From: Psammoneis japonica
Lineage: Eukaryota
Reading direction: 5' to 3'
NCBI GenBank assembly: GCA_008632985.1
Contig: QPGO01000023.1
Span: 741,681 to 805,680 of the forward strand
DNA: 64,000 nt
The translations under genes were made by a program, and so were the position numbers. The notes under the pieces were generated by a model, which was given only the letters and a program-made list of their open reading frames with translations, was not told where the DNA came from and searched no databases. Shown in pieces: positions 20,808 through 52,320 of the stretch (position 1 is its first letter; each line of letters opens with the position of its first letter).

Positions 20808-21338
20808 AACGCAATTTTGCTGCGTGGACACGTGTGTCAGTTGATCGAAGATTAAGATGGTGATTCATTTATTTGTGCATACTGTAAATGACTAAGTCTA
20901 CTTTAGCTTTATGGTGAAGTACTTACTCTAGCTTGCCAATTCCAAGAAGCTCGCACTATTGCGAGTTGGCTCAAGCCCGGGCCAGCCGAGTGCGCAAGAC
21001 TACGGTAGTTTTGATGGAGCGGTAGAAAATAGATCTAGAGTATGAATATTACCAAAATACGAGTGCAATGGAAATCCCTGCGACGACTTTTTCTTGGAAC
21101 GGAAACGTTGGAAAATAAACATGCATCGTGAAAAAGAATGCGTACGATACGGCCTCAGTTTGCAAACGTTTGGTTTTTGGTGACAAGGGAATGTAGAAAA
21201 AATGCAGGACGGCTGCACCGTGTGCCGTCCACAAAAGTCACACAGACACAGACTTCTTGACAATGTGTGTGCGGAAGACTGCGATGAAGAAACATGAGAG
21301 AGAAAGTCTGTCGCAAAAAGGTGATGCATGACTCTCAT

Positions 21339-22229
21339 TCAAGAGCACCAGAGGATGGCATCATTAAGAATTTGATCCTTTTCACGTTCCCCTCCTACAA
21401 TCTTCTCATTAAGCGCATGGCTTGGAGTCCCATTGGTTCCTCCAGGCTTGTAGATGGCATCACATGAGGCAAGCATGATTTCGTTTTCCAATGCTTGTTT
21501 AGCATCCTCAAGACAATCGGCAAAACTTACAGGATCTGCCGGCATGACCGATGACGACGTGGCATTTAAGCTTGAAAACCAATCTTGAAGCATGTCATTG
21601 ACAGTCTCATTCGAGGCAAACAACTTGAGCTCGAATTGGTTGTCAAAGAGCTTCAAGGCCATGTCCCAATGCAAGCCTTGGTGACCAGCACAACGCGTGG
21701 CTACAGCGGCTTGGCAGGACACATGGTCAAGCACTTTGGCTGCCGCATCTCTCAAGGCAAAGGAGACGCAGCCTTGTTCCACATGGCCTTTGTCAATCAA
21801 GTTCTCTTGAAAGCATTCACATGCCCATTTGCTGCATGGGCATAAAAAATCATTGTACATGACGAGCGCCATGGGGGCATCTGGGCTGCCCAAGGAAGCA
21901 GCATTGAAGCTCGAAAATGAGGATGATGACATCATGTTGCTGCTGTTGTCTTGGGAAAGAACTACGAGCAACAATTTAGCCAGTGCCAGCAGCAGCAACA
22001 AGCTTGCGCAAAAAGCAGGAAGCATCATGCAGCCGCTCCAGCGGCTGCGTGGTTTGCCGAGACTCTTCTCGCAGTTGCCATTGGCTTCATGATCCATCAT
22101 GACGATCGTGTCATTCTCTTGCAGTGGGGCATCATCCTCCATCGCTGTGACACCCTTGTTCAACCTGACAAGCTCAGTTTCCACATCCATCTTGAGGCGT
22201 TGATGCTTTGGAACACACTCTGGCACCAC
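21339..22229 (-). pseudogene. DsbA-like thioredoxin-fold protein with N-terminal TM anchor, partly TpA-mutated (probable pseudogene)
   Basis: LGSPDAP..LVMYNDFLCPCS, AA.ATRCAGHQGLHW, FADCLED, GTNGTPS motifs; Cys/His at positions usually Tyr (CPC for CPY, GLHW for G.YW). Confidence 0.7.
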
Positions 22230-22234
22230 GGCAG

Positions 22235-22286
22235 ACTCTCTCTACTCTCTCTCTAGAGAGTGGATGGCAGCCACTGCAGATGGCAG

Positions 22287-22315
<29 letters not shown>
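22235..22315. repeat. (CT)n and (GA)n microsatellites
   Basis: ctctctctactctctctct at ~22235-22254 and about 14 GA units at ~22288-22315. Confidence 0.9.
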
Positions 22316-22317
<2 letters not shown>

Positions 22318-22329
22318 TCCAAAATCGAT

Positions 22330-25300
22330 CCGCGTTTCACTGGGTCCCGCGGGTCACATCTGCGTTTTGCTGGGGCCCGGGCAATGGTGCCTTCAAGGAG
22401 CAGGGATCATCTTGAACGCAATGAGTGAACGAAGTTTCGTGTGCCGCGCGAGGCTGACCCACAGCACGTGGGAAGATGTGGTTGGACGGTGTGATGTGTG
22501 CAGTCGGATTGCAACCTGCCATTGATGAGCCACGTGTTGACTCCAGTGACTGCAGAAAATGAATGACAGAAATGTCCAGCTCTTTGCTGGTGTGATCAGA
22601 GGGCAAGTTGTTGTGGACATGTTTTTGGACATTCAGGGGCAAAGTTTGGCAACGAACAACTTTGAAAAACACCTGCCACATCATTTTGCATTGGTGCTGG
22701 ATTGGGAAAAGACAGGTTGTGAGCAGGAGTCATTCACAACTGCACTGTCATTTGCATCTTCACCTGTGGTGGTGGCACCGCCACGAGAGAAGAGTGAGCG
22801 GGTCCGGCAAACACGGGCTGCGAAGATGACAAGAAGCCGGCACACATGGTTGTTGGCACAGCCATGTTGAGCCTTCCTTTTGGAGTGCAGTGTCAGGGAT
22901 GACCGCTCTTCCCATGTGCCATGCATCCTTTTCCCTGCAGCAAATGTTGCTGCCTCTCCACACAACATGGGGCCGGCGGGTTTCTGTCCTGCACGTTGCA
23001 ACTTCAAACACTGCTCAATTTGTTGGTGGTGGATTTGCCCACATTGTTGCCAACAAAGATGTTGCACCCCCCAAACAGCAGCTGTTGCCATGCCAGGTTG
23101 TGCACTTGCATGTGCTCCAACAGATGGACATTTCTGCTCAAACATTGAAAATTCAAGCCACAATTTAAAAACAGCAAAAAGAGCTGCAAAAATGCAAAGC
23201 CATCTTGAAGGAGAGCAGGAAGCAGGCCAGACCACAGAAACTGAAGTCAGATCATCCACCAGAGTTGGGCTGTGACGGTCATGTGAAGCATTGGTCAAGC
23301 TCAACAAGGACAACATGTGGTGTGTTTTGTGTGACTCAGGAAGGAGGGCCGCCAAAAAAGCTTCAAGCTGCACATCACAAAATGGAGCAGTGCCAGATGA
23401 GGAAGAAAGATCAGCACTTGTTTTGTTTGGGTGTAAAAAAAGAAGAAAGGATGCAGAAAAGGGCGTGGGTGACCCTGATTGTGTGGGTTCCGACAGAAGA
23501 TTTGTTGTCATTGTGGCGGGAATGCGTGTGAGTCTTGTGACAAAATGAGCATGTTCAAGAAAAAAGCAAGCTTGTTGAAGATGCATCTGATGGCAATGGG
23601 GAGAAAGAAGAAGAGTCAGAATCTGATGAAGGCAGAGGCGGTTCTTCAGAAGAGGTGAAGTGAGTGCATTCACAAGCTGCAGGGCCTGGATCAGGAACCA
23701 GTGACATTGGAGCAGCACTTGCAGTGGGCGTTGCAGGCAGTGGTGCCAAAGGACTTTTCAAAATTTGCTGAGTCCTGCAAAAACAACTTGGATTTTGTCA
23801 ATGACAAGTCTGTGGAAGAGCTGGTCAGCAAGAACATGCGTGAGATTGCAAGGTGCATTGCAGCACTCAATCTTTCCACTTGATCAACCATGTGCCATGT
23901 GATTCAGAGTGTGACAAGAAGTGACACCCAGCTGTTTTGATGGAGAGCAAGGCAGTTGACAAGTTTCAGTTGAGAACCTTGTGGGAAGATTTTTCACTTG
24001 TTCAAAGTGACCTGTGTTTTGAGTTTCATCAAAGAGCAGCCCTTGTCAACTCTCAACACAGGTCACATGCCAGCTCAGAATGAACAATGCTGTGATGCCA
24101 AGCTTGAGATGAAACTGCCAGGTGTTGTTGCAGCACACAAAAAAATGTCAGTGAAACTGTGAGAAGTGATGGGGAAGTTGGCTGTTTTGCTGTTGCAGCT
24201 GTTTTTGAGCAAGAGTGGAGTTCCAAGAAATTGGTGCTGCCAGGAATGTGCAATGCGGCAAGCAGCAATGGATGACAAATTTGCTGAAGCTGTGTCCATC
24301 AAGCCAGAGAGATGGGGATTTTTTGCTTTTGAAGAGATTGCATTGACCCTGTGTGACAAAACTCAGGATCATTTTGATGGCATGAACAACTTTGGGTTTT
24401 TTTGTGACTGGGTTGCTGTTGGTTCTGCAGTGCTGAATTGCTCACATTGCCTGAACAACATGAGACAGGTGCTGAAGGACAAAGGCTTCAATGTGGAAGT
24501 GACACTGGTTGTGATGACATTGCACACTCAAGGCATTGTTGGGACATTTCAAAAAACCACATTGGCCAGCCATGGGCCACAATGATGAAGAAGAGAGCAC
24601 CCCCAAGATCTTGCATGCTTTCACTGAGATTGCATGAAAGATGCACCAAAAGCCATCACTCTGCTTGGGAAGGATGACAAGAGAGGAGGCGTCATCCACC
24701 AATTTTGGCGTGATGCTGCACCACTCAATTTCAGGAAGTTGAGTGACATTTTGGTCACTTGGAGATTGGAGGGGAGTTTCAAGCTTTTTGATGATGGTGT
24801 TTGTGTGGACATGGCATGGCAATTGGCTGCTTTTGTCAATGCAGCTTTGTTGACAGATGAGGTGCAGGTGAAATTTGTAAAGCAGATGCGGGCATTTCAT
24901 GTGTGGGAAACAACTGGTCCATGCAATTCGGTGGTGTTGGTGGAGCCATTTCTTCAAAATTGCTTTTGCAGTGAGGAGGGCACATTTTTGGGGAGTTTGT
25001 GCACATTGGCAATTCATTCAAAATGATGTCAGTGGAAGCACACAGTTTTGTGGTGTGAGGAAGAAAGATGGCATCACAGTTGACAAGTCATGGTGGCCAA
25101 GTTGCCAAGATTCTTGTTGCACTGTGCCTGATGGGGCTTTCTTGTGGTGCAGGGCTGGTGAGTTTTTTGAGCACTTTGGCATGGTGGAGGACAACATGTT
25201 GGCTTGTTGTGATCCAAAGAAACAAGAAGTGTTGAAAGAAGACATGTTCGATCATGTGTGCTCCAACATGTTGCCAGCAAAACAAAGTGTGATGAAAATG

Positions 25301-27333
25301 AGAATGATGCAGATCATGGCAAAAATGGGAAAGGAAAAAAAGAAAATTGTGAAGTCTGCTGCTGAGTGGATGTCAGCTCCCAAAAAGCAATGTTGGAAGA
25401 TTTTATGAATGTGTGCTTCATTTGAAGATTGTTGGCTGCAGCATTCACAGATGTTCTTGCATGTGTCAACAAGAGCAGAAACTTTGGCTCCAGCAAATTT
25501 TTTGATGACTTCTGTGGTGGTGGTGCTGTCAGCAAGAGTGGAAAGGTTGAGAGCATCAAACCCCATCTCCAAAGGGTTGCAAAGTTGCTGGGTTCTGTGA
25601 TGAAGCAAGTTGCACCCGCTGGAGTCTTTGGTTGAAAATTGTTGTTGTCTTGAAGATCATGAGAAAAATGTGCATGACTGCATTGTGCTCCATCATGGAT
25701 GGATGCAGACGATGTGTCAGGTGTTGTTGAACAGGCCACCCAAGTTCAACAAGTGTGTGTGGCACCAGACACATGCAAGTGGAGACTGGCACAATTTGAA
25801 AGACTTGGTTGTGACTCTGCTTTGTGAAGAGAAGGCCAGCAATGCTCCGGCAAACTTTTGGTGGTGGAATGAGAAGGGGCAAAGGATTCATCATGGGTGA
25901 GAACATTGAATCCATTCAAAGTTGGCCGCTTGGTGCAGAAAGTCATGAAGGCTGGACATTGACTTTTTGTGCAGCTGCAACCACATGCATTGGTTGGGTG
26001 CACATGGCAAATTTCCTTTGTGGTGACACTTTGGAAGTGTCTGCCACTGGCAGCACACCCATTGTGGTTTTTGGGCACAACAATCTTTGGAACGGGCACC
26101 CCAGAGGGGGGACCCCCTGCCACTCCAAAGCCCACTTGGAGTTCAGCATCTGTGGCACACATCTTAGCACAGCCTGCAACACAGCCAGTTTGTGATGACA
26201 ACAACAACAGCTGCACACCAAATTTGCATGAATTGCAGTGCAAGGCATGGCTGGACTTCTGACTTCTTTGTGGCAAAGGGGGGTGACTTCTCAGTGCTGG
26301 AATCAAGGTTGATTGTTTCTGGAGCACAGCCTCTTGCAACTTTGGGGTGTGGTGTTTCAAAGAAATGATTGGCCACCTTGAGGTCTTCTTTGGCCTGCTT
26401 TGGACCTGCGCTTGTGCAACTTTTTTGAATGATTTGAGCCAACAGAGATGGCATGATGGAATCACCAATCGACCTCAACTTGCAAGAGTCACCAGCTTGA
26501 AGTCAACCTGCGTGGCATGCAGTGTTTTCTTGCTCTTGTTTTTGTCATGGATTTCTCTTGCTTTCAAACCCATTGGAGGTGCTGTTCATTGAGAACATTT
26601 GCAATTGTTGAGCACATGGCTTTCCTCATTTGAGAACCAGTGTGGTCAACCCAATGCAGCGTGAGTTGTTTGGGCATCAATTTTCCTTGTTTGTTTGGCT
26701 TGTTTTTGGGGACAGGTTTGTTGTTGAAATCCTTGTAGAAGCAGTTGTGACAAATCCCATTTTGTGACAAACCTTCCTTTTCTGCTGACAACCATTGCTT
26801 CGAATGGCTCAGTGCAACAATCAGCTCCGCTGGATGTTTCCATGAAGCATGCCTTGACACCTGGAAAGAAGCACAGCAGGAGGATCAAAAGGGGGCCACC
26901 TCAGAAAACACTCTATTTGGAAGGTGCCAACGGCAAGTTGGCAGCAATTGTCGTGAGTTGTCCTTTTGGCCCTGTTGGCTTTGTTGGGTGGGTGCTTGGC
27001 GGGTGGTGGCTCTGCAGTGGGTGCATGTTTGCATTGTGTGGTTTCATCCCATTTGGCATTGACTTTGGAAAAATGGGACCAGCAGATCAACCATTTGGCT
27101 CAGAGAATCAACCATCATCCAATTTTTTGCACTCAAATGGTTTCTTGTTGCAGCTGCACAAAAATGATTTCTCTTGCTGCATCTCCATGAAGAGGGTGAT
27201 GGAAAAAATTGGCTCTGTGAATTTAAACAGGTGCATTGCTGGGGTGAACCAAGGGCATTTCTTTGCACATTTGAACATGGGCTTGCATGTTGGAGACCGG
27301 CAAAGAGGTGATTTCTGATGTGTTGTGTTCTCN

Positions 27334-27390
<57 letters not shown>

Positions 27391-29320
27391 NGCATTGCTG
27401 GGGCAAGCCAAGGGTGTCTCACACATGATGTGGGTTTGCATGTTGGAGGCTGGCAAAGGTGAGTTTTGATGCATTCTGTGTGTGCCCCCATGTGCTCTGT
27501 TGCAGCCAAGGAAATGCTCTGTTTAAAAGCACACTTGCATTTGTTGTTCAAAGTGAGCAACTCCACAGTCAAAAAATCCAATCTTCTGGTGTGCACAGTG
27601 AATCCACTGAGCCTGAGCTTCCTTGACTTTGCCATGTTCTGTTTCATTGTCCACACCACAAGCTTCTTTTCTTTTCTCAAATTGCAGTTGTTTCAGCAAC
27701 TAAATTGTGAGAACACTGATCACACCATTTTTGGATGACATGGTTTGTTGCAGGAGAGTGACAAAGTTTTCTTCTTTGTCTTTTGGTTTGGCGCAAATGT
27801 CTCTTTTTCTCATTGAGAAGTGACAAGGATGAAAACATTCCATGCTTTCATTGGCTGACATTTTGAACCTTCAAGCGACACATCCAATGAGCACATTGAT
27901 GGACCACATGTGGTTTCACCCATGTCATTCTGCTGAAGTGACCAGTTTTTAGATTTTGTCAGGCTTGTCATGACAAAGTGGCATGGAGCCAAACTTCTCT
28001 TTTCATGTGCAAGTTGTTCGCGGCATTGGAGATTTGTGTGCACCACACCTGTTGCACTGCTTTTTGTTGATCCAGTGATTCAACAACATTGTTGCAAGTT
28101 TTGTTGTGTTTGCAGGAACAGTGGTTGAGTTGTTTTCTCACAACTTGTTGTTGCCATGGATCCATGGCTTGACACTGGTGTTGGAGAAGCAGCTGACACC
28201 AACACCAACATGTGCGCTGGCACAATGCCGACACCAGAGTTGTTGAAGTGACAGACTGCACATGGAGCCTTTGCAAAGAGAGCTGGAGCTCAAAAGTGTG
28301 GTTGCTGTGGCTCTGGTGCTCAACATCAAACATCCCATGGAAAGAAAGCAGCAGGAACAGCACTCCAAAATGGGGGCAACTTTGTTCAGCCAGAGATGTT
28401 GACAAATGCAAAGCATCAGAAGTTGGCTTTGGCTGCTCCTTCTGCTGCAACCACACTCTCCTTTTTGCAGATTTGGCAAATCCAGGATTTGCTTTCAGCA
28501 TGGCCATGCAAACCCAAACAGAAAGCTGCCAATTTGTGTCATTGATGCACCAGAGTTGGGTTGATGTTTTTAATCCCCAAGCCGCTGAAAGCAGAGTTCC
28601 GACCAACCCAAAGATGGGGCACAGTCAACGTTGAAGCTGACCACAAGTTGATGCCAGCAAAGAATTGGAGCTTGCAGTGCAAGACATTGAGTCTTGCTTC
28701 CTTTCTCACACAACTGTGTGAGGACTTCTTTGACGAAGTTGTTTTGCACACATGGCAAAACCATCAACACAACACAGGCAAGTTTGAGATTGACATTGAA
28801 AGGGTTTGTTGCACTGGTTTGTTCTGCAACAGGTCCAAAATTGGAAGCAAGGCTGCAAGCTGCCTGAGTGAACACAAGATGAAGGCATCTGCTTGTGCTC
28901 CAATTTTTTTGCCATGGAGCCAGATGACGTTCCCAAACATCTTTGCAAAGAAGGCTTTGCTGGCATGGAAACATGATTGTTTTTTGCACTGCCAATCACT
29001 TGTTCAGCAGCTTGTTGCTGCACTGTGATTTCTCCTGTTCTGACATGATGCAAATCATCATTTGGACAACACAATTTTCTGGAGTCTGCAACTTTCGATG
29101 CAAGCTGAGCAGCTTCAAACGACGGCAATTTTCTTCTTTCCTGTCTTTTTTGGTCTTTTTGCACAATTTCTTTTGTTGCTTTCCACTGACTCTCAAAGTC
29201 AAACAATTTGTTTTGGTTGCCACCAAGCAGGCTCCATGAAACTTGAGCATGTCCATGTGGCAGCTGACATTGTCATTTGCAAGAGACATGTTGACAATCA
29301 AATCAAACTTGTTTACAGCA
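22330..29320. mobile_element. TpA- and CpG-depleted block A: decayed repeat/TE-derived DNA of unassigned family
   Basis: TA nearly absent over 7 kb, CG rare, TG/CA in excess; fragmented protein-like frames on + (~22900-26590) and - (~27400-29300); ORFs nearly Tyr-free. Confidence 0.6.
27334..27390. repeat. (TG)n microsatellite flanked by single Ns
   Basis: 57 bp of perfect TG; N at 27333 and 27391. Confidence 0.95.
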
Positions 29321-29612
29321 CAAGCTCCCATTTCATTTCCACGTTGTCCTCAAGAAAGACATCATGCTAAAAATGTGTGGGATTGTCCCACCCGGGCAAA
29401 TTAGTTCCCCTTTTCTTTTATTAATTAAAGAAAATGACCAGTCATTTGTCTCAATAATTGTTATTTTGTCGTAACTGTCTCAACGGATGTGACTCAACCC
29501 AAGCAAGGATGGCACACCCTCGAACTCTCACCAAACGTGAGCAAGTGTGGGTTCGCGGCTGAACGCACACTGCGAATACAGCGTACAATAAAAAAGCAAA
29601 AACACAAAAAAC

Positions 29613-32351
29613 ATGATGAACAGGGACTCTGACGACGGAAAGGATATTGGTGGCAGCCGTGACAGCACTGAAAGAGCTCTTAATAAATCAATTGCAACCG
29701 CAAGCGACATCAAGGCGGAAAAGAGAAAGAATCGTCGTGCTCGTCGCCAAGACGGGCAACATGACGTGACGGGAAAGACGGGAGCGAATGACGAGCACGC
29801 CTCAAACAACGAGTGCACTGCCACGATGAAGGAGAAGACGATGAAGAAGAAACTCCGAGTGAAACAAGGAAATCAAAATCCTGAAAATCAACGCGTCGAT
29901 CCGAGATTTGTCACCAATCGCAGCCATGTGCCAGACACGGAGGAAGCACTAGTGCCACCCACAAAGGCTCGTCCAGTCAGCCGACGCCAAGTACAGTCTA
30001 CTGACAATGCAATCATTTTGAACAGTCACAATGGTCATCAGACTGACAAATTCGTGAGATTTGGAAGACACGATCAAACGTTGAACGAACCAGAACCAGA
30101 GGCGAAAGAGCAAGAAGGGGGGCGAAGCATCGTGCCGAGTAATGAACATCATATCTCGGATGAGCGAAGCAATCTGAATGACAAGAAGAAGAAGAGAAAG
30201 AAGAAAAGCCGCCCCGAAAAGGAGCAAACAGACGAAAGCGACATCATGGAGCACTTCGATCAGGTCGCTGTTACTTCCAATCCAAACCATCATGTGCAAA
30301 GCATGAAGGAGCAACGAGCAAACGACATTCCAAATAAGAAAGACTCGATCGAAGATTACACCCTCAAGAAACGTGAAGCAATAATACAATCAAAAATACA
30401 GCAAGCTATCGACCAACACATCATTTTATTAGTCGAACAGCAAGAAGTGGGTTCCCATGAGAAGGAAGAGATGCCGAGCGTCAGGAATGCAGCAGTGGAA
30501 CCGAAGGGAAAGAAAGGCCGTGTTTTGACAGAGAAGAACAAGAGAAGGAAGCGTCGTTCTTTAATAGAGCGGCGAAGAGAGGAGGTGAATACCGAAGGAC
30601 AAGCTGACCCATTTGAAGTTGTTGTCAGCGACTCAAGAGTCGAACCAGCAAACGTAGACACACCACCACTAGCACCAACCGTTGGGGCCTTTGCGGTTTG
30701 CCAAGGCCAAGCAATAAGACGCACCAATGTGCTTTCCGGAGACACCGAGACTCAATTTTCAGACTTGGGAACCGTCCATTCCAATTTATCACTAATGCAG
30801 CCTGCTTCCCCGCCTCATGACGATGGCACACCAGTGTTGGAGGCGCACCTCGCACAACCGAACGAAGATTTCGAAGCCGAATTGGCTCGTCGACAAGCCG
30901 CACACGGAGAAGAAGTGCATCGGCTTCAGGCAGAGATGCGGAATCTTCGCCAAACCCAGCCGACGGAACTACCGCTCGCACATGCAGAAGTGGCGCAAGG
31001 AATCTACAACAGGAAACGGTTGGTGATTTCTTCTGCAGTATTTTTGTTAGTTGTTGCCGGCGTTGTCGCCACAGCAATAGTTTTAACCCAGCGACCTTCA
31101 GACTCGCCAACTATGGCTCCAACTATGGCTCCAACTATCCGGACACCTTTCATCTTGAATGCGACATGGACGCAGGTTGGGCAGATTATGTCTTCTGAAG
31201 CTACTGATGATTACTTTGGTTTTGCTGTCTCGTTGTCGGGTGATGCAAAAAACATGGCCGTCGGAGCAACTCAAAAAAATGCCGCTGGTGACGGTCGTGG
31301 ATACGTGTTTGTATTTCAATTGGAAGAATCAACTCAATCTTGGACTCGCATGGGACAGGTTTTGGTGGGAGAAGCAAGTTTAGATGTTTTTGGCAGATCT
31401 GTTTGTTTGAATAGTGACGGCACCGTTTTAGCGGTTGGAGCGCTACAGAATTACGATGGCGCATCAAACGCTGGTTATGTTGGAGTCTATGAATACAACT
31501 TAATAGCGGACAGGTGGCTAAAGCTAGGGAGGAACATTAAGGGGGACACAGTTGGCGATGAATTTGGTAATGCTGTTTCATTGTCCGATGCAGGAGACAC
31601 TCTTGCGATAGGATCACGAAGAGGAGACAATATTCACGGGGTCAACTCTGGGTATGTTCGAGTCTTTCGTTACAATCGCAGCAACTCGTCCTGGGCACAA
31701 CTGGGACAGACATTGCAGGGTCAAGGCGCATATGATCTGTACGGCGATTCCGTATCCTTGAGTAGTTCCGGCGAAATTCTTGCCGTTGGTTCACGTTCAA
31801 GTGATATAGGTGGGAAAAATGCTGGCCAAGTCTTTATGTACCAATACAGTTCAACATCTGCATCGTGGACTCAAATGGGGCTACCGATAAATGGGCAAAC
31901 TGGAGGCTTACTTGGAAGTTCTGTTTCTCTTAGCAGCAATGGTTTAGTTGTTGCCACGGGTGCGCCTGGGGTGAATGAAGAGAAGGTTTTAGTCCATGCC
32001 TACGATAGCGAAATGTCAGAATGGGTACAACGTGGTCAAACCTTAGGGACTCAACAGCCAGGCGACGGATTTGGACATTCTGTGTCGTTGAACAAAAAAG
32101 GAGATATGTTGGCTGCAGGAAGTCGTTTTTACACCGTCAATGGATTCGAGAATGCCGGTCGAGTTGTCATGATGAGATATAATACAAGTACACAGGAATG
32201 GGATCAGGTGGGCGAAGGTATGAATGGCGCTGCCGCAGAAGATCGCTTTGGAAAGTCGGTTTCAATTTCTGGAAATGGAACCGTAGCAATTGGTGCATCG
32301 GGGGGTGCTGTCAAAATGGGAACAGCATCTGTTCACAAAATCGAATGGTAG
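29613..32351 (+). CDS. Single-pass membrane protein with C-terminal FG-GAP/integrin-alpha-like beta-propeller
   Basis: 912 aa; charged low-complexity N-terminus with VGAFAV, TM LVISSAVFLLVVAGVVATAIVL, PTMAPT linker, about seven repeats of W.Q.GQ.L.G....D.FG.SVSL....LAVGA. Confidence 0.85.
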   Translation: MMNRDSDDGKDIGGSRDSTERALNKSIATASDIKAEKRKNRRARRQDGQHDVTGKTGANDEHASNNECTATMKEKTMKKKLRVKQGNQNPENQRVDPRFVTNRSHVPDTEEALVPPTKARPVSRRQVQSTDNAIILNSHNGHQTDKFVRFGRHDQTLNEPEPEAKEQEGGRSIVPSNEHHISDERSNLNDKKKKRKKKSRPEKEQTDESDIMEHFDQVAVTSNPNHHVQSMKEQRANDIPNKKDSIEDYTLKKREAIIQSKIQQAIDQHIILLVEQQEVGSHEKEEMPSVRNAAVEPKGKKGRVLTEKNKRRKRRSLIERRREEVNTEGQADPFEVVVSDSRVEPANVDTPPLAPTVGAFAVCQGQAIRRTNVLSGDTETQFSDLGTVHSNLSLMQPASPPHDDGTPVLEAHLAQPNEDFEAELARRQAAHGEEVHRLQAEMRNLRQTQPTELPLAHAEVAQGIYNRKRLVISSAVFLLVVAGVVATAIVLTQRPSDSPTMAPTMAPTIRTPFILNATWTQVGQIMSSEATDDYFGFAVSLSGDAKNMAVGATQKNAAGDGRGYVFVFQLEESTQSWTRMGQVLVGEASLDVFGRSVCLNSDGTVLAVGALQNYDGASNAGYVGVYEYNLIADRWLKLGRNIKGDTVGDEFGNAVSLSDAGDTLAIGSRRGDNIHGVNSGYVRVFRYNRSNSSWAQLGQTLQGQGAYDLYGDSVSLSSSGEILAVGSRSSDIGGKNAGQVFMYQYSSTSASWTQMGLPINGQTGGLLGSSVSLSSNGLVVATGAPGVNEEKVLVHAYDSEMSEWVQRGQTLGTQQPGDGFGHSVSLNKKGDMLAAGSRFYTVNGFENAGRVVMMRYNTSTQEWDQVGEGMNGAAAEDRFGKSVSISGNGTVAIGASGGAVKMGTASVHKIEW

Positions 32352-43402: not shown

Positions 43403-44350
43403 TCATTGTCAACCCATTGAGCAACCGCCATCGTCGTCGTTGATTTACCAACGACGCTATTTCAATTCTACGTGGACCCCGTATATATCCTACATACATC
43501 GGCAAGTCTACGCGCATTCAATACCAGGGCATCGGCAGGAAGTTAACGTCACCGTCAAGTCTCCTTACCGCTGGATATCTGGATTGATTATACTACCTTT
43601 GATCGCTGAAGACATACATTCAACGGTCATATCCAAGTCTATCCTTGATCCTCATCCCTTGATATACCTATTCATCGGTTAACGGTCAAGAACCCTACAT
43701 ATTCAAGGATCTTCGTCGCTGAAGACATATATATATATACATATCTTCACGGCCAAGAACCTGTACCCACTCTTCGGACTGCGGTTTTGCTGCCACTCTA
43801 CAAGCACACCGAGTCCATTGCACCTGATCTACCCCGGACTGCTGGTGCTCTACAGTTCTACTAGGTCCACGAGGACGACTGTGAGAGCAAGCAGCCATGA
43901 TTGCAGCCTGCGTTGGGGCGAGGGTGCTTTCCCGCGTTTGTTCGTTCGTCCACAGCGCCCAACGCCTGCGTCAACTGGCCAGCCTGATCGGGAAATCCAA
44001 CCGACATAAAATAAGAACGGTTCGGGGGTCTTGTCCACCTCTGGTCAGCTTACCTGCAGGGGTTTACAACCCGCTGCTCCGCTCGCAAGCAACCCAAAGC
44101 GCCACCAGCTGCGGGTTCGGACGTGCCGGCACAACTCTGCGGACCGGACAGGAAGTTTAGCACTTGACAACGAACGGGATGACAAAGCCCGGCGACTTCT
44201 GATTTTAAGACAGTTCAAGATTTCAAGTCAAGTCCATTTCAAGTCAAGTCTGTTCTCACCCAAGTTTCGAGTCCACCTTCTCACCCAAGTTTCGAGCCCA
44301 CCTTTTCTTCCCAACCAGAATTGATTGTCCTGACACCACTTTTGTCTACC

Positions 44351-47300
44351 ATGGTTCTCACTCGTCAGCAACAAACCGATGGTTTCGAGCACGTGGTTGG
44401 AACCGTGCTTGCCCAAGGTGCTGGGAGTCCTCTCCGTTTGGCTTTGGCCCAAGACGGCACGGACTCGCATCAGGAACTGTTCACGTTCATGCCGTCCCAA
44501 ATCGACTCGCTTGAGTGCGACAACGGCACTAATGTAATCCCTTTGCCCCGTGGTTATAAGAACATGTTAGCAGCACCAGTCAGTCTGTACATTGTCAAAG
44601 CACACAAAGGTCTTGATGTTGCCAACGACTCCTCTTTGTTCACGCATGACGAGTTCCTCGCCTGCCGCCTCAGCCCCGACTGCATGTCTTCTGTGTCCAT
44701 CGGCAGCTCACCCCTTGCACCTCCACATGTCACCAACCCGACCAAGGCACGCGACCCGGTGCAGGACTTCAAGCGAGGCATCAAGCGTGATCCCACCGCT
44801 TTCACGGCCCTCAAATCCGACAAGCAGTGGCACACTTGGCACACCTCACTTGTGGCACAAGCCCGTGCCCAAGACGTCGAGTGCATTCTAGACTCGTCGT
44901 ACAAACCGACCAGCCCCGAAGACAAACTGCTCTTTGCTGAACAGCAAAAGCACATGTTCGCCGTCTTCGAACGCATCCTTCTCACCGACAAGGGCAAGGC
45001 TCTCATTCGCGAAAATGTGGGGTCTTCTGACGCACAGACCGTCTGCCGCTCCTTGTCTGAGTGCGCGCTTGCCTCCACCCGCGCATCTGTCGAGTCCTCC
45101 ACCCTGCTCACGCACCTCACCACCGCGCGTCTCGGTGATGGCACTTGGAAAGGTCCGACCCACGGGTTCATCCTTCATTGGCAAGATCAGTTGCGCAAGT
45201 GCGAGGCACTCATCCCGGCCAGTGACCACTTCTCTGAAGGACAGAAGCGCGTCATGCTCGAGAATGCCGTGCACCCTGTCGAGGAACTCCGTGCTGTCAA
45301 GAACCAAGCTGATCAGCATCGTACGCAGAGTGGCAAGAGCCTCACATGCGATCAATGCTGTGGCTTGCTCCTCTCCGCGGCAGCTCAGTACGACAGCACG
45401 TTTCAACCCAAGACGACACCTCGAGCTCCCCGACGTGCCATGTGCGCACACGACGTCTACTCCGAGGAACCGTCCGACGATGTGTTCTACGACATTGACA
45501 GCGACGTTGACGTCCTCCAAGCCAATGCTGCCTGCACCCGCAGTCCCAGCCTCACCGGTGTCCAATGGAGACGTCTCCCTCCCGACCACCAACGGCTCTG
45601 GGATTCGTTGCCCGATTCCTCCAAGGCGATCATCCTTGAGCATTCTCGTCCACCTCCCCGCAACCCGCGAGCCAGCAACTGCCATGAGTCTGTTACGGCC
45701 AACCTTCACGACCAACGCCTTGGGAGTGACGGTGATGTCAACTTGTCCAACACGACTCCTGCTGACTCTGGTGACTCCGCTCCACATGTGGACGCCACTT
45801 CGGATGATCCCATCCTGGCGCACCTCACCAAGCGCAAGCCACTGCCACCCGGTGATCTGCAACGTCTGTTGTCTCCTAACCAAGCCCCCAATGCCAGTCG
45901 ACCGGGGCCATCCGCCGCTTCCTCTACCCCGCCAGCTTCTGCAGATGACATGGAACTTAACGGCCGCACTTGCCGCCGCGTCAACAACCACAATGTCATT
46001 TGCTCTGCCTCTGCTCATCGCTCCACACGCACTGGCGCTCTAGTCGATCGTGGGGCCAACGGCGGCATTGCTGGCGACGACGTTCGCGTCATTGCACGCA
46101 CCTCTCGCCAAGTCGACGTTCAGGGCATTGACGATCATCAATTGGTGGACATCCCCATTGTCACCGCTGGTGCCGTTGTTGAGACCCAGCGTGGTCCCGT
46201 CATCGCCATCCTCCATCAGTGCGCACACACGGGCAAGGGCAAGACCATCCATTCCTGCGGCCAGCTCGAATGGTACAACCAAGATGTCAACGATCGCTCT
46301 GTCAAGGTGCCCAACGGCTTGCAACGTATTGCCACTCCTGATGGCTGTGTCATCCCCATTGACATCAAGGCTGGCCTGCCTTGTGTTGCCATGCGACCTT
46401 ACAATGACGCCGAATGGGACACCCTGCCCCATGTCATCCTCACCGGTGATGACACATGGGACCCTTCCGTCCTCGATCACTCTGTCACTGACGACGACCA
46501 GTGGTACGACGCGATCTCTGACCCACAGGACGATCCCACTGCCAACCCATTTGACGAATGCGGCAACTACCGTCATCGTGTCGTTGTCAACGAGACCATC
46601 ATGTCCGCTTCCTTGTCTGCCGATCACGCGTCCGCCCTCGATGATCACCTCATTCCGAACGACGACGTGTTCTACGAGTGTCATCTGCATGCGATTGGCC
46701 CCCAGGGCGATGACGTTCCACCTCCGGAGCGCACTGTACAGCCCAAGGACCCCCCCTTCGAGTCCCTCCGGCCTTGCTTTGGCTTCCTACCCACCGATGC
46801 GGTCCGTCGTACTTTTGACTGCACCACGCAGTGCGCCCGCATGCCCGCCGGTACACACCTTCGCAAGGCCTGCAAATCACCCAACCCCGCCCTTAATGTG
46901 CACCGCCGCAACGAGCCCATCGCCACTGACACCGTTTATGCCGACACCCCGGCCGTCGACTCTGGTTGCACCAGCGCCCAACTGTTTGTTGGCACCGAGT
47001 CTACCGTCACTGACGTCTACGGCACTGAGACGGACAAAGAGTTTGTCAACACACTCGAGGATCAGATCCGTGAACGTGGTGCCCCATCCAAACTCATTAG
47101 CGACCGTGCTCAAGTTGAGATCAGCAACAAAGTGCTCGGGATCCTGCGCGCTCTCTTCATCTCTAGCTGGCAAAGTGAGCCTCACCAGCAACACCAAAAC
47201 TTTGCCGAACGTCGACACCCGACTGTGAAGCGCATGGCGAACACTGTCATGGATCGTTTTGGTTCGCCCGCCCACACATGGCTGCTGGCGCTCATGTACG

Positions 47301-50020
47301 TGTGCTTCACACTCAACCATGCAGCGTCCCCACGTCTCCACTGGCGCACGCCCCTCGAGACTCTCACTGGCTCCACCCCGGACATCAGCCCATTGCTTCG
47401 CTTTCACTGGTGGGAACCCGTGTGCTTCCACCTCGATGACTCCGATTGGCCGTCCGAATCCCGTGAGTTGCGTGGACGCTTCGTTGGCATTGCTGAGCAC
47501 GTCGGCCACCAGATGACCTTCAAGATTCTATCTGACGAGACTCAGAAGATCCTCTACCGGTCCAACGTCCGCTCCGCTGCCCCCGATCCTGCCGTTCGAA
47601 ACCTGCGTCTTGATCCTCCTGATGGGGAGCCACCTGAACCCATCATCAAATCTCGCCATGACGACAACCCCGTCGACTCTCCTGATGGGGAGATCAGGAC
47701 ACCCAAGATGCCAGTTTTCGATCCGCAAGACATCATTGGACGTACCTTCCTCATGCAGCCACAAGAGGACGGACAACGCCACAGAGCTCGCATCGTCAAG
47801 GCCGTCGAAGACCACGAATGGAAAGTGAACGGCAATCCCGAGCTCACTAAGTTCGTCTGCTCTGTCAACAATGACGAATACGAGGAAGTCCTTGCCTGCA
47901 ATGACATCATGAATCACATTGAGCAAGAAGACGAAGACACCACTGTTTGGAAATTTCGACGCATCGTGTCGCACGAAGGACCTCTGAAGCCTCACGACCC
48001 AACCTGGAAAGGCTCCAGCTACAACATCATGCTTGAATGGGAAAGTGGGGAGATCACGTCCGAGCCTCTTGCCATCATCGCCAAGGACGACCCCGTCACC
48101 TGTGCCATCTATGCACGAGAGAACGGACTCCTCGACACGGATGGCTGGAAGCGGTTCCGCACCATCGCGAGGCGCCAAAAGAAGCTATTTTGCATGGCCA
48201 ACCAAGCCAAGCTTCGCTCCTTCCGCACTGCACCTCGCTACAAGCATGGATGCGAAGTTCCCCGGAACTACAAACACGCCATGTCACTAGACGAACGCAA
48301 CGGCAACCGCAAGTGGGGAGACGCAACTAATCTCGAGATGGACCAACTCGACGAATACGAAGTCTTCCATGACTGCGGGCCCTTCAAGTCTTCCACTCCT
48401 CCTGCGGGACACAAGAAGATCCGAGTGCACCTAGTGTACGACGTGAAACACGACGGTCGCCACAAGGCACGACTCGTAGCCGACGGGCACCTCACAGACG
48501 TACCTGTCGACAGTGTCTACTCCGGAGCAGTCTCCCTCCGTGGCCTTCGGCTGATGATTTTCCTGGCCGAACTCAACGAGTTGGAGACATGGGCCACCGA
48601 CATTGGCAATGCCTGCCTTGAAGCCACCACCAAGGAGAAGCTTTACATTGTAGCTGGACCCGAGTTCGGCAAACTCGAAGGGCACATCCTTGTCATCCAC
48701 AAGGCACTGCATGGACTGCGCAGCTCCGGTCTCCGCTGGCACGAGCGCTTCGCCGACTGCCTGCGAGCTGAAGGCTTCTTCCCCTGCCGCGCCGAACCCG
48801 ACATTTGGATGCGCAGGAACGGCGACCACTGTGAATGCATTGCCGTTTATGTGGATGACCTCGCCATTGCCATGAAGGACCCTCAATCTTTCGTCGACAC
48901 TCTCACGGAAAAGCACAAGTTCAAGCTCAAGGGCACGGGACCCATTGAATTCCATCTGGGTTGCGACTTTTCCCGGGAACCCGACGGAACCTTGTGCCTG
49001 TCTCCGCGCAAGTACATCGAGCGCATGGTCGACAGCTGTGCCCGACTGTTTGGGGAGAAACCCACCACCAACGCCCTGTCACCTCTAGAGAAGGGTGACC
49101 ACCCCGAACTGGACACTTCTGAACTGCTGGGACCCGATGGCATTCACAAGTTCCAGTCTCTTGTTGGTTCACTCCAATGGGCAGTGTCCCTTGGTCGAAT
49201 TGACATTGCCACGGCCGTCATGTCACTCTCTAGCTTCCGAGCTGCGCCCCGTCAAGGCCACTTGGATCGTGCCAAACGCGTCTGTGGGTGCCTCTCCAAG
49301 ATGCGACACGGTGCTCTCCGCGTTCGCACGGAAGAGCCCGACTGTTCGGATCTCCCTGCTCTGGCCTATGAATGGATGCATTCCGTGTATGGTGAAGCAG
49401 AAGAGATGATCCCGAAGGACGCTCCACCGCCCCTTGGCAAGTTCGTCACTGCCACCCACTACGTCGATGCAAACTTGCACCATTGCATGCTCACCGGACG
49501 CTCTGTCATGGGAATGCTCCACTTCCTCAACAAATTCCCGGCTGATTGGTTCTCTAAGAAACAAGCCACCGTGGAGACTGCGACCTGCGGGTCTGAATTT
49601 GTTGCCGCAAGGACTTGTGTTGAGCAGATTATCGACCTGCGCATCACCCTGCGCCACCTTGGCGTCCCGATCCGTAACGTTAGTTACATGTTCGGTGACA
49701 ACAAGTCGGTTGTAGACAGTGCCACCATCCCGCACTCCAAGTTACACAAGCGACACACCGCACTGTCGTTCCACCGTGTGCGTGAGGCAATTGCCTCTGG
49801 TTGCCTTGAGCTCCACTTCATCGAAGGCTCCCGCAACCCTGCTGACATTCTCAGCCAGCATTGGGGTCACTCCCAAATCTGGGACCTTCTCCGCCCCCTC
49901 ATGTTCTGGAACTTCATTCCATCCGAAGTCGAATCTGTTTCTGTGGCTCCTCAAGCAAACTGGGGAGTGACAGGATTTGAACAGGATTTAGGTGCGCGCC
50001 AAGCATCGCGCGCTGTTTAG
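44351..50020 (+). CDS. Copia Gag-Pol polyprotein; ORF intact but many conserved Tyr changed to Cys/His
   Basis: Protease LVDRGAN; integrase D(ATD)..D(ISD)..E(FAE); RT YDVKHDGRHKARLVADGH and YVDD; RNase H YVDA, GSEF, FGDNKS, NPADI. Confidence 0.93.
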   Translation: MVLTRQQQTDGFEHVVGTVLAQGAGSPLRLALAQDGTDSHQELFTFMPSQIDSLECDNGTNVIPLPRGYKNMLAAPVSLYIVKAHKGLDVANDSSLFTHDEFLACRLSPDCMSSVSIGSSPLAPPHVTNPTKARDPVQDFKRGIKRDPTAFTALKSDKQWHTWHTSLVAQARAQDVECILDSSYKPTSPEDKLLFAEQQKHMFAVFERILLTDKGKALIRENVGSSDAQTVCRSLSECALASTRASVESSTLLTHLTTARLGDGTWKGPTHGFILHWQDQLRKCEALIPASDHFSEGQKRVMLENAVHPVEELRAVKNQADQHRTQSGKSLTCDQCCGLLLSAAAQYDSTFQPKTTPRAPRRAMCAHDVYSEEPSDDVFYDIDSDVDVLQANAACTRSPSLTGVQWRRLPPDHQRLWDSLPDSSKAIILEHSRPPPRNPRASNCHESVTANLHDQRLGSDGDVNLSNTTPADSGDSAPHVDATSDDPILAHLTKRKPLPPGDLQRLLSPNQAPNASRPGPSAASSTPPASADDMELNGRTCRRVNNHNVICSASAHRSTRTGALVDRGANGGIAGDDVRVIARTSRQVDVQGIDDHQLVDIPIVTAGAVVETQRGPVIAILHQCAHTGKGKTIHSCGQLEWYNQDVNDRSVKVPNGLQRIATPDGCVIPIDIKAGLPCVAMRPYNDAEWDTLPHVILTGDDTWDPSVLDHSVTDDDQWYDAISDPQDDPTANPFDECGNYRHRVVVNETIMSASLSADHASALDDHLIPNDDVFYECHLHAIGPQGDDVPPPERTVQPKDPPFESLRPCFGFLPTDAVRRTFDCTTQCARMPAGTHLRKACKSPNPALNVHRRNEPIATDTVYADTPAVDSGCTSAQLFVGTESTVTDVYGTETDKEFVNTLEDQIRERGAPSKLISDRAQVEISNKVLGILRALFISSWQSEPHQQHQNFAERRHPTVKRMANTVMDRFGSPAHTWLLALMYVCFTLNHAASPRLHWRTPLETLTGSTPDISPLLRFHWWEPVCFHLDDSDWPSESRELRGRFVGIAEHVGHQMTFKILSDETQKILYRSNVRSAAPDPAVRNLRLDPPDGEPPEPIIKSRHDDNPVDSPDGEIRTPKMPVFDPQDIIGRTFLMQPQEDGQRHRARIVKAVEDHEWKVNGNPELTKFVCSVNNDEYEEVLACNDIMNHIEQEDEDTTVWKFRRIVSHEGPLKPHDPTWKGSSYNIMLEWESGEITSEPLAIIAKDDPVTCAIYARENGLLDTDGWKRFRTIARRQKKLFCMANQAKLRSFRTAPRYKHGCEVPRNYKHAMSLDERNGNRKWGDATNLEMDQLDEYEVFHDCGPFKSSTPPAGHKKIRVHLVYDVKHDGRHKARLVADGHLTDVPVDSVYSGAVSLRGLRLMIFLAELNELETWATDIGNACLEATTKEKLYIVAGPEFGKLEGHILVIHKALHGLRSSGLRWHERFADCLRAEGFFPCRAEPDIWMRRNGDHCECIAVYVDDLAIAMKDPQSFVDTLTEKHKFKLKGTGPIEFHLGCDFSREPDGTLCLSPRKYIERMVDSCARLFGEKPTTNALSPLEKGDHPELDTSELLGPDGIHKFQSLVGSLQWAVSLGRIDIATAVMSLSSFRAAPRQGHLDRAKRVCGCLSKMRHGALRVRTEEPDCSDLPALAYEWMHSVYGEAEEMIPKDAPPPLGKFVTATHYVDANLHHCMLTGRSVMGMLHFLNKFPADWFSKKQATVETATCGSEFVAARTCVEQIIDLRITLRHLGVPIRNVSYMFGDNKSVVDSATIPHSKLHKRHTALSFHRVREAIASGCLELHFIEGSRNPADILSQHWGHSQIWDLLRPLMFWNFIPSEVESVSVAPQANWGVTGFEQDLGARQASRAV
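49962..49967 (+). promoter_or_regulatory. Short polypurine tract
   Basis: GGGGAG immediately 5' of the 3' LTR. Confidence 0.7.
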
Positions 50021-50243
50021 TTTACCGTGCACAGTTTTGTGTGCTTTAGTTCCGCGCGTTCACGCGCGATGTAGTTTGCTTTCGAGCCACAAGGCTCACA
50101 AGAATAATGACAGTAGCCCGACCACACCGACTCACACGTCTTTCGGCTCCTGTGACGGTCTCTGAGCGGAGACTCATCTGCTGTTTAGACAGCAGTGAGG
50201 AGTCATTGTTTGAATTCTTGCCATTTGCCTTTGTTTTCTGTCA
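49968..50243 (+). repeat. 3' LTR
   Basis: 276 bp; 12 substitutions relative to the 5' LTR; only 8 TA remain. Confidence 0.97.
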
Positions 50244-52320
50244 CAAGTGGTGCTGCACACCAGTCACCGCAGATGATCGGGCAGAGATTTGCTGCCAAAA
50301 GACAAGCAAAGCCCAGCTGATGGGCAAGTTTTTCAACAGTTGTTGGCTCAGCAGAGGATCATTGGGTGGAGTGTTGGTTGCAACCAGCAAAAGAGAAAAG
50401 CCCAACTGATGGGTGAGCCAATCTGGGATTGTGCAGTTGGCCAAGATTGCACTGGTGCTGGCCCCAGGGTGGCATGCATGGCAAGACAAATTGAGCAACA
50501 TTTCAAACAAATGTCTCACATGGCTTCTTGAATGGACAACAGTTGGACAAGTTCATCCTGCAATGCACTTGTGCTGCTGTCAGACTTGTCATCTTTTTCC
50601 AGCACTGGTGACTCATTCCTTTCATCATGGCCACTGGACTTGTTCCTGCCATTGTGACCACTGGGCCACCCATTCCTTCAATCACGGCCATTTGTGAGCA
50701 ACAAACATTGAGTCAGCACCAGTCATGAACAATGCCACAAGGACAAAAATTGTGCAAATTGCTCACCTCACCATTGCTCTGCTGCTGGACAACAAAAACA
50801 AAAAAGAAGCATTGTTGTGTTCAACATGCTGTCAAGCTCCACTTTTTGCATGTTTGCTGCCTCCATTTCAAGCCACAAGAATTTGCTGACCATGCCTGGG
50901 ATTTTTTCAGACTTGCTTTCAGGTTTGCCACAGAGGAGCTGTTTTTGCCCCCATCCCTGATGTGCAACATGGAGGTGGCTGCATCCAGGCTGTGTTGAGC
51001 AGTGCCAGGATTGGACATGTTGACACCTGAGCTGGCTGGAACAAGGCAAGCAAACTCATGGGGAGAGTGAAAGAGTTGCCGTGGCAGCCAACTGCTGCCT
51101 TTCACCTGCAGAGGATGGCTTTGCCCAGAAAGTCAGCAAGGTCAAGAAGGGCTGCTCAAAACCTTCTGGGTCTGCACCACTTTTCATGCCAGCAGCATTG
51201 TGCGCCACGCCGTCAGCTTGTTGCAAAGCTCCTGCTTGACCCTCTGAGCCTTGCAACATCTGGTGCATGGGAAGCAATGGCTCTGTCATTGAGGTGAAAG
51301 ACCTTGAGAATTGGGACATTTTGGAAATGATTGGTCAGACTGCACTTGCCAAAGTCATTGTGCAGAAGTGCGCAGTCATTGGGGTGCCTGGGTTGCTTTC
51401 TTTGTCAAGTGCAACATGCGAAGCTTTTTGGCGAAGGTGCTGGGAGGCTCTCTGGAACAGAGGGTTGCTGAGAATCTTGATGATTTGAGAATCTTTTGCT
51501 GGCCTCCAGTTCTCAGAAGTGCTGAAGGAGGGCTTGTTAACGCGCGCACTTTGTCCTTCCAGAAAACTGGTGCCACATTTTTCTTGCAAAATTGCCCTCA
51601 CTTCCCGGGTTTCCCTCACAAGGTTGAGGTGACCCCCCTTGCCCTGGCCATTTTGTGGGATCCCCAAATGAGCAAAACCAAACTGTGTTGTTGTTGTGAA
51701 GAAGCTGCTTGCAATTGCAGCAAAGATCTCTGAAGCCAAGTGCTTTTGTGGGCACAATGCTCCCATCCACAAGCATCTTCTCTTCTGCTGTTGGCAGCCC
51801 TTCAACATCACAACCATGGGCAGCCAAGAAAAGCTTTTGACTGAAGAAATGAGGGGTTGGCGCAAGCCCCCCACTTCCTTGTCATGTGGTGTGCCATCAA
51901 AACACAGCGAAGCGACAAAGAACATTGCCAACAATGACACAAAATGAAAAACAGAAACCTGCAAAAACTGACAAACAGCAGTGGCAGCTCACCAACAAGA
52001 TGACTCAACAACAAGAAAAGAGCAACAACAACACAGCCTGTCAACAGCAATTGCAAAACGAAAACAAGACACAAGCAAACACGGAAAAGAGAAGCATCAT
52101 CATCAACAACAAAGCAATGGCAAAGACAGTGCAAATGTGCATGCAAAAAAGATGAAGCATTGCAAACGCTCCGCAATGTCAACAACCACGACACACAGGA
52201 AGAATCAACAGCCTGATGGCCTTGCAATGGCTTAAGGTCCTTCTTTCCATTGAAAAGCCATCTGATCAAAGGCAGGCATTGTTCTTTCCCATGTGAAGTG
52301 ACATGCCTTTGATCAGACAG
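50244..52320. other. TpA- and CpG-depleted block C (continuation of the DNA interrupted by the copia)
   Basis: TA nearly absent; Tyr-free spurious ORFs; joined to 43111 through the TSD. Confidence 0.75.

Follow-up and report, generated by a model that had tools for sequence, protein, structure and literature searches.

TpA-free blocks around a copia element in the diatom Psammoneis japonica suggest locally targeted hypermutation of TpA with slower decay of CpG

Blocks, genes and edges of the locus

The DNA considered here is a 64,000-nucleotide stretch of the diatom Psammoneis japonica (assembly GCA_008632985.1, contig QPGO01000023.1, positions 741,681 to 805,680 of the forward strand), which we call the window and whose own positions we use throughout. 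It is gene-dense, with long, uninterrupted open reading frames (ORFs), and entire intergenic stretches between its genes are occupied by three blocks that have almost no TpA (TA) and few CpG (CG) steps: block A (22254–29398), block B (35290–43106) and block C (50249–52233). An unconverted gene island, whose ORFs match FG-GAP repeat, glutaredoxin and GTPase families in Pfam, separates A from B (29399–35289), and a copia retrotransposon lies between B and C, with its two long terminal repeats (LTRs) at 43112–43387 and 49968–50243. We assign a probability of about 0.7 to the reading that the blocks are old remnants of mobile DNA, now single-copy, in which a locally targeted, DNA-level hypermutation turned essentially every TpA into TpG or CpA while CpG decayed more slowly; the mobile origin itself is evident for B and C only.

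We computed the ratio of observed to expected dinucleotides (o/e) in sliding 1-kb windows across the window, as totals for each region and, for the edges, as a 200-bp profile. In the 1-kb windows, TA o/e drops from 0.5–0.9 to 0.00–0.10 in the blocks and CG o/e from about 1 to 0.03–0.3, while TG and CA climb to as much as 1.7–2.07 (at approximately 22.3–29.3, 35.3–43.0 and 50.3–52.0 kb). The region totals for TA, CG, CA and TG are 0.02, 0.20, 1.99 and 1.73 in block A (22300–29300), 0.06, 0.07, 1.88 and 1.89 in block B (35500–43000) and 0.01, 0.15, 1.72 and 1.83 in block C (50300–52000). TA and CG stand at 0.53 and 0.95 in the gene island (29400–35200), at 0.62 and 0.93 in the left outer flank (1–21000) and at 0.53 and 1.08 in the right outer flank (52500–64000). 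Raw counts, taken over 22300–29350, 35400–43111 and 50244–52200 (16.7 kb together), come to 13 TA and 74 CG among 7,050 dinucleotides in A, 30 and 28 among 7,711 in B and 1 and 22 among 1,956 in C. At the background o/e, 297, 313 and 75.5 TA would be expected (Poisson log10 P of the deficit, −107, −93 and −31), and the lowest TA o/e of any background 1-kb window is 0.32. Both the ratios and the counts thus confirm what the initial annotation had described, namely near-absent TA, few CG and an excess of TG/CA in three blocks, with normal values in the island and in the later genes.

The summed frequency of TA, CG, TG and CA is nearly constant, at 0.234 in the background, 0.239 in the island and 0.242, 0.243 and 0.237 in blocks A, B and C. 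TA and CG were therefore converted to TG and CA rather than deleted, and the changes in the blocks are transitions throughout. The G+C content of the blocks (0.44–0.53) is similar to the background, and their sequence is not of low complexity except for a (TG)n tract in block A (27334–27390).

The edges are as sharp as had been claimed for them: by 200-bp windows and direct reading they span at most 100 bp, except on the graded left side of block A, where a margin of partial depletion (about 21240–22253; TA o/e about 0.1–0.3, CG about 0.35–0.7) precedes full depletion from 22254. Block A ends near 29398 and block B begins near 35290. Block B then stops exactly at the copia insertion (43111/43112) and block C starts right after the element (50243/50244), the last and first five nucleotides on either side being the two copies of its target-site duplication (TSD); block C ends at about 52233–52330. 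Unconverted non-coding DNA adjoins the blocks at 43200–43799 (TA o/e 0.91–1.14) and at 34800–34999 (TA o/e 1.06). Two further features are found where block B begins: just outside its edge, a 35-bp sequence is duplicated perfectly in tandem (35168–35237), and about 80 bp into the block there is a G16 run (35367–35382).

The LTR pair of the nested copia element

The element has the hallmarks of Ty1/copia: direct LTRs of 276 bp that begin with TG and end with CA, a 5-bp TSD (CAAGT, at 43107–43111 and 50244–50248 on the plus strand, from alignment of the LTR flanks) and an RVT_2 domain (Pfam, E = 3.6e-26, residues 1406–1618) downstream of an integrase-like region. That region is a D, D, E stretch at about residues 930–1040, found by eye; the frame gave no Pfam rve match at E ≤ 0.01. 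The plus-strand frame (44183–50020) extends over 1,945 codons from stop to stop and keeps the YVDD motif of reverse transcriptase (RT) intact. It holds 70 TA in 1,928 codons, against 0.065–0.12 per codon in host genes, and its translation is rich in His (4.4%) and Cys, with 1.5% Tyr. The initial annotation had called the young copia TA-poor yet CpG-rich, which holds for the ORF region (TA o/e mostly 0.2–0.35, CG about 1) and fails for the 5′ LTR and leader, the unconverted stretch at 43200–43799 mentioned above.

The LTRs of an LTR element are identical at insertion, and the same CAAGT on both sides marks a single insertion, so these two LTRs began as identical copies. Today they differ at 12 of 276 positions. 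At ten of the twelve, the 5′ LTR has TA where the 3′ LTR has TG (five sites) or CA (five sites); the remaining two are a T>C beside such a TpA site and a G/C transversion. The unconverted 5′ LTR contains 18 TA and 20 CG and the 3′ LTR 8 TA and 19 CG, and none of the 20 CpG has undergone a transition between them. Differences are concentrated at TpA positions relative to all others (p = 2e-8), the contrast between 10 of 18 TpA and 0 of 20 CpG changed is significant (Fisher p = 9e-5), and so is the single direction of all ten TpA differences (p = 0.002). In a purine/pyrimidine code the LTRs are 99.6% identical. TpA conversion comes out roughly 100-fold above change at other sites, an indirect figure that rests on two substitutions. 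Because the LTRs differ despite an intact TSD, the changes came after integration, on DNA. The process recorded here is specific to the TpA dinucleotide, acted after integration on both strands equally, proceeded independently of CpG transitions and was much faster than CpG decay in the 3′ LTR.

These properties bear directly on editing of RNA. ADAR and APOBEC editing of animal retroelements produces clustered deaminase transitions on RNA or pre-integration cDNA, on one strand, and ADAR prefers a 5′ U; the changes here, unlike those, follow integration and affect both strands equally. An ADAR-like A-to-I editing of retroelement RNA, fixed by reverse transcription into new insertions, would fit a preference for UA>UG (5′ U) and would suit the retroelement origin of block B. 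It would, however, leave its pre-integration changes in both LTRs, whereas the LTRs of this one insertion differ at ten TpA, and it would mark one strand, whereas five TG face five CA in the LTRs and the TG and CA counts are about equal in block B (879 and 937) and block C (211 and 230). The blocks are moreover single-copy, and tandem units in block B, described below, diverged in place by TG/CA flips. Recombination between copies, as a way of making the two LTRs differ, is argued against by the matching TSD. Taken together, these points make RNA editing highly improbable.

As to the direction of change, parsimony favours TA>TG/CA. TA is present in the 5′ LTR at all ten sites, with adjacent blocks that are nearly TA-free, and the TA o/e of the 5′ LTR (about 0.9) is the ordinary level of non-coding DNA (0.78–0.94 at 17.5–19.5 kb). 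A TATA-like ATTATAC in the 5′ LTR reads ACCACAC in the 3′ LTR. The opposite direction is disfavoured, since ten CpA/TpG steps would have to undergo C>T while all 20 CpG stayed unchanged. De novo mutations in the chlorarachniophyte Bigelowiella natans also run from TA to TG/CA, according to a recent preprint (Mettrop et al., bioRxiv 10.64898/2026.01.13.699255).

Origin of the blocks and order of loss

Blocks B and C are the two halves of one older relic that the copia element split, because the element is flanked by a perfect 5-bp TSD and thus inserted cleanly. Block B contains a remnant of a Ty3/gypsy-type RNase H (38173–38406, plus strand; Pfam RT_RNaseH, E = 8.9e-8, 32.7 bits against a cut-off of 24.8), which belongs to a frame-broken retroelement and found no match when the fragment was compared with longer proteins. 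Pfam scans covered stop-free ORF pieces of at least 70 amino acids (147), of 30–69 amino acids on the plus strand of B (65) and of 38–69 amino acids in A, C and the minus strand of B (119); only this fragment and a DsbA-like ORF at the margin of block A fell below E = 0.001. Within the window, self-BLAST found no similarity among blocks A, B and C, even in purine/pyrimidine code, and tblastn with the copia protein found no older copia remnant in the blocks. Recoding to purines and pyrimidines, which hides transitions, brought out nothing beyond the copia LTRs and tandem arrays; the short matches in that code were purine runs, with E-values uncalibrated for two letters.

A tandem array in block B (41241–42225; units of about 190 bp, TRF period 190) provides a second view of conversion in place. 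Its units are 74–81% identical in four letters and 85–88% identical in purine/pyrimidine code, and at matching steps a TG in one unit faces a CA in another 30 times, against 6.8 expected, over six pairs of units (each p ≤ 0.025; the pairs are not independent). Such double-transition flips are expected if each unit, where it stands, resolved a self-complementary ancestral step (TA or CG) on its own; the flips cannot tell TA ancestors from CG ancestors.

The blocks could instead owe their composition to their source, if they are foreign or viral DNA in which selection in a former host or vector had disfavoured TA and CG before their arrival. Block A lends itself to this idea, having no homologue and no mobile-element domain: its ORF pieces (68 of at least 70 and 56 of 38–69 amino acids) gave no Pfam match at E ≤ 0.001, and its 358-amino-acid ORF found no relative among 1.84 billion representatives, the best Atlas score of 0.81 lying within the range reached by shuffled proteins. 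We nevertheless consider an imported composition very unlikely, given that conversion is visible in the LTR pair and the tandem units, that the four-step sum equals the host background and that block B holds a frame-broken retroelement remnant. We also know of no case in which selection has driven TA o/e to 0.01–0.06 across kilobases of non-coding DNA.

Block A has peculiarities of its own. Over 23300–27800 it shows a sustained strand asymmetry (TG 900 against CA 716, p = 5e-6; also G > C and T > A) that is not seen in blocks B and C. Its (TG)n tract, of about 28 units with two N at its bounds, sits between two copies of a segment of about 90 bp (27233–27475 in all) that are about 90% identical in purine/pyrimidine code. 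Among the 44 TA that survive in the three blocks, most lie in T-rich or A-rich contexts and 32 are followed by A (TTTAAA, CTTAAA, TCTAAA), which might mean that the process acts poorly on TAA/TTAA or that the surviving TA arose recently.

Contigs from a sequencing run (X1) were compared with the window, a word depth of about 64 corresponding to single-copy DNA; X1 is possibly the sample behind the assembly, so its agreement with the assembly is not independent evidence. Its contigs, up to 315 kb long with an even word depth of about 64, reproduce block B at single-copy depth with 0–2 differences per piece of 0.8–3.6 kb. Word depth is 62–115 across the island and block B (62–105 in the island), and within block B it ranges over 63–246, reaching 176–246 at 38.0–39.3 kb, the region of the RNase H remnant; the blocks are therefore single-copy or nearly so. 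One of the four differences in 7.8 kb of block B falls on a TA, at 35821 (TA in the assembly, CA in the X1 contig at a share of 1.00), in a block where TA positions make up less than 1% of sites; an allelic difference and a recent conversion are both conceivable.

The same contigs bear on another explanation, a sequencing or assembly artefact in which, for example, the modified bases of heavily modified chromatin are wrongly called as G or T. The pattern does resemble systematic miscalls at modified A and C. The 0–2 differences per piece between X1 contigs and the blocks point to accurate reads, though, and the two LTRs, which are of the same sequence family, are read differently. The B. natans signature came from Illumina data. 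An artefact is barely credible.

Arranged by composition, the sequences of the window fall into four states. TA and CG are both normal in the genes and in the copia 5′ LTR and leader; TA is partly lost with CG near normal in the 3′ LTR (8 of 18 TA left) and in the margin that holds the DsbA-like ORF; TA is gone and CG about halved at 22254–23166 (zero TA and 32 CpG per kb, where the background has about 57; CG o/e 0.27–0.76 in 200-bp windows); and, in the fourth state, TA is gone with CG at or below 0.2. No CpG-depleted stretch with normal TA occurs in the window. The initial annotation had proposed two processes that both end in TG/CA, with TpA lost ahead of CpG. The conserved four-step sum and the LTR pair (10 of 18 TpA, 0 of 20 CpG) bear out the first part, and the four states bear out the second within this window.

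A single deaminase acting on A in TpA and on C in CpG could also write TG/CA from both steps, and TA and CG are indeed lost together, towards the same end, in every block. Mettrop et al. cite reports that enzymes of the ADAT2 type edit both bases, A and C, in DNA. We regard one shared enzyme as improbable: the LTR pair has ten TpA conversions and no CpG transition, 22254–23166 has no TA and still 32 CpG per kb, the contexts do not match (the target base is 3′ in T[A] and 5′ in [C]G), and the B. natans mutations were A>G or T>C in 230 of 231 cases.

The raw counts also give a sense of rate. The ratio of TG+CA to TA is 60 in block B, 127 in A and about 450 in C, and that of TG+CA to CG is 20–65; near equilibrium, these ratios suggest that TpA conversion exceeds ordinary transitions by about two orders of magnitude and that CpG decays within the usual range for methylated CpG. 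Passive damage might strike TpA everywhere, for instance as spontaneous adenine deamination or as the UV TpA photoproduct, a possible source of damage at this step, and persist where repair is excluded from compact chromatin. Such damage would agree with domains that fill the intergenic stretches between genes, and CpG decay in the same domains fits an effect of chromatin state. It is an unlikely explanation all the same, since unconverted non-coding DNA lies directly beside the blocks (43200–43799 and 34800–34999), repair differences would seldom give such contrast at 100-bp edges, and, by the equilibrium ratios, TpA is converted 60 to 450 times faster than ordinary transitions occur. In B. 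natans the rates are more than 1,000-fold higher and switch on and off between lines.

The further proposal that TA and CG ratios form a two-hand clock for repeat age is not supported, because conversion is patchy within one element, episodic in B. natans and saturating at zero. The two LTRs are of equal age and stand at 0 of 18 and 10 of 18 TpA converted (p = 3e-4), and the process was on in only 11 of 15 B. natans lines.

Two neighbouring genes deserve mention. The DsbA/thioredoxin-like ORF in the partly converted margin (21339–22241, minus strand; Pfam Thioredoxin_4, E = 1.3e-8; DsbA in PDB, E = 2.5e-5) has a CPxC motif one residue short (C-P-C against C-P-F-C in the aligned DsbA) and a composition of 0.7% Tyr and 4.7% Cys; perhaps it belongs to the relic, or perhaps it is a host gene that suffered when the conversion spilled over. 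A RIO1 kinase gene (57209–59298, minus strand) seems split into adjacent ORFs at 58426–59298 and 57209–58408, probably by a short intron or by a shift of frame, in a region that is otherwise poor in introns. Among the best 120 matches of the RIO1 ORF, the relatives named by organism are all diatoms, at 59–71% identity, and the best unnamed ones reach 70–71%.

A possible mechanism, known systems and meaning

We propose that the fast process changes A:T to G:C on one or the other strand of TpA, which yields TpG or CpA. By analogy, its chemistry could be deamination of adenine to hypoxanthine, which is read as G, and its targeting might follow chromatin state or guidance by small RNA. It would have been active since the copia insertion, judging by the 10 of 18 TpA converted in the 3′ LTR. 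The second, slower process would be ordinary decay of methylated CpG, taking most CpG to TpG or CpA; here loss through 5-methylcytosine is suggested by analogy with methylation of LTR elements in the diatom P. tricornutum. Damage to the target would come from altered codons, as when Tyr becomes Cys or His, and from erasure of TA signals such as TATA. Enumeration of codons shows that TA>TG/CA never makes a stop from a sense codon and that CG>TG/CA does so only at CGA. Because the conversion removes TAA and TAG and makes no stops, long false open frames remain (block A has 9 ORFs of at least 150 amino acids in 7 kb), and for the same reason the 1,945-codon copia frame says little about age or activity.

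The closest known system is that of B. natans. In the mutation-accumulation lines of Mettrop et al. (2026), two integrated viral regions received 231 of the 302 nuclear mutations; all but one of the 231 were A>G or T>C, and these 230 all lay on TpA, at a rate of about 6e-7 per site per generation and with 11 of 15 lines affected. The preprint also reports 124 TpA-depleted, CpA+TpG-enriched clusters across the genome and proposes adenine deamination with an ADAT2-like candidate; its main text makes no mention of CpG, diatoms or stramenopiles. The likenesses are close. In both cases the changes are limited to TpA becoming TpG or CpA (here 10 of 12 LTR differences, with TA loss balanced by TG/CA gain), foreign or mobile DNA is affected while adjacent genes are spared (here with edges of at most 100 bp, the mobile DNA being the relic of blocks B and C and the copia LTR), and activity is patchy, on or off; TpA-poor genes of B. 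natans are also enriched in domains of transposable element (TE) type. The differences are equally clear. The host here is a stramenopile and not a rhizarian, depletion is saturated (TA o/e 0.01–0.06, against 0.45 in the nucleocytoplasmic large DNA virus region of B. natans), and the targets are retrotransposon relics and an LTR rather than giant-virus or virophage inserts. TpA loss is coupled with CpG loss here, and it is read from sequence and not as de novo mutation.

Decay of methylated CpG, as it occurs in silenced transposons of plants and vertebrates, accounts for part of the picture. CG o/e is 0.07–0.20 in the blocks, with a gain of TG/CA, and 0.93–1.08 outside, as such decay predicts, and CpG methylation of LTR retrotransposons has been described in P. 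tricornutum (PMC2806351). Unlike the TpA process, however, it cannot remove TpA, and it leaves the greater part of the TG/CA gain unexplained.

Repeat-induced point mutation (RIP) of fungi offers the other obvious comparison. It changes C:G to T:A, mostly CpA to TpA, and so raises TpA; it acts on duplicated DNA and can leak into neighbours. The blocks resemble its products in being a transition-only, dinucleotide-specific hypermutation that disables mobile DNA and leaves sharp compositional domains, and they differ in that TpA is erased and G+C is not lowered. Copy number also differs from what RIP requires. The copia family comprises 14,452 contig pieces in X1, with a summed word depth of 70,000–130,000 against about 64 for single-copy DNA, and it is barely converted, whereas the saturated blocks stand at a depth of 63–246, roughly a thousandfold lower; an ancient duplication of the blocks is compatible with their present single-copy depth. 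RIP was tested for direction and for its duplication requirement and rejected on both.

Several observations weigh against the hypermutation that we favour, or limit it. The LTR differences are polarised by parsimony, which makes their direction probable rather than certain. The 5′ LTR and leader are untouched, 1 bp from a TA-free block, which simple spreading across a domain fails to explain; post-insertion conversion seems confined to the 3′ end of the element, beside block C, and either the process is patchy or something at the 5′ LTR excludes it. In block A, nothing recognisable as a mobile or viral domain turned up, and the 358-amino-acid ORF found no relative. The X1 reads may be the assembly's own, so their agreement does not independently exclude an artefact. 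Finally, a mutation-accumulation study of P. tricornutum names CG, CC and TG as mutagenic contexts, and TpA is absent from its main text (PMC6604790).

The interior of the copia element belongs to the same side of the balance. Transitions make up 377 of the 487 variable places of the family, and of 40 places listed among these 487 we considered the 36 at which most family contigs differ from the window copy. None of the 36 is a lone TG/CA in the window copy against TA in the family, and six show the converse, TA here and TG/CA in the family. Eight are TG/CA here against CG in the family, five of them private (share ≥ 0.99). The others include three with CG here and TG/CA in the family, four adjacent CA/TG pairs, five other transitions and six transversions. 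Among these listed differences, interior CpG decay is at least as visible as TpA loss. Since no lone TG/CA-versus-TA difference is found among the 36, the low TA of the interior is probably for the most part a family heritage that was there before this copy inserted. Comparison of the copia RT region with metagenome contigs found one distant locus only (L001, 36% identity), of ordinary composition, and no further family copies by which to polarise the changes.

For annotation, the consequences of the hypermutation reading are practical. Converted relics no longer match their families, so that repeat annotation misses them and ages based on divergence are inflated. False long ORFs in TA-free DNA may inflate counts of orphan genes. 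That such an element keeps an intact ORF does not prove it young or active. Joint maps of TA and CG o/e could flag these domains by sequence alone, as a qualitative map of state and not as a clock.

What is new is the appearance of a TpA process in a second, distant lineage, in a saturated form coupled with CpG decay; a process of this kind is known from one 2026 preprint. A full-text literature search found it only in that preprint and found no description for diatoms. Two papers on diatom TEs contain no wording on hypermutation, dinucleotides or RIP (PMC2806351 and 10.1101/2025.10.24.684338), the second none on TpA either.

If the reading is true, a natural TpA-specific editor of A:T to G:C in DNA would be worth seeking; to our knowledge, no natural adenine deaminase acting on double-stranded DNA has been described. 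A bolder thought, and a long shot, is that a separate mark, heritable and symmetric (N6-methyladenine, for instance), sits on TpA and that its deamination would cause the loss, in parallel with 5-methylcytosine at CpG. Tentatively, we can imagine that diatoms and chlorarachniophytes share an ancient, domain-aimed defence that deaminates adenine at TpA in double-stranded DNA beside CpG methylation, driving both steps to TG/CA, possible as this is without being the likelier case. If the process in P. japonica is the same as that in B. natans, it is now found in a distant and ecologically dominant algal lineage, and it would be a widespread, perhaps ancient, defence that, instead of silencing DNA, works by mutating it.

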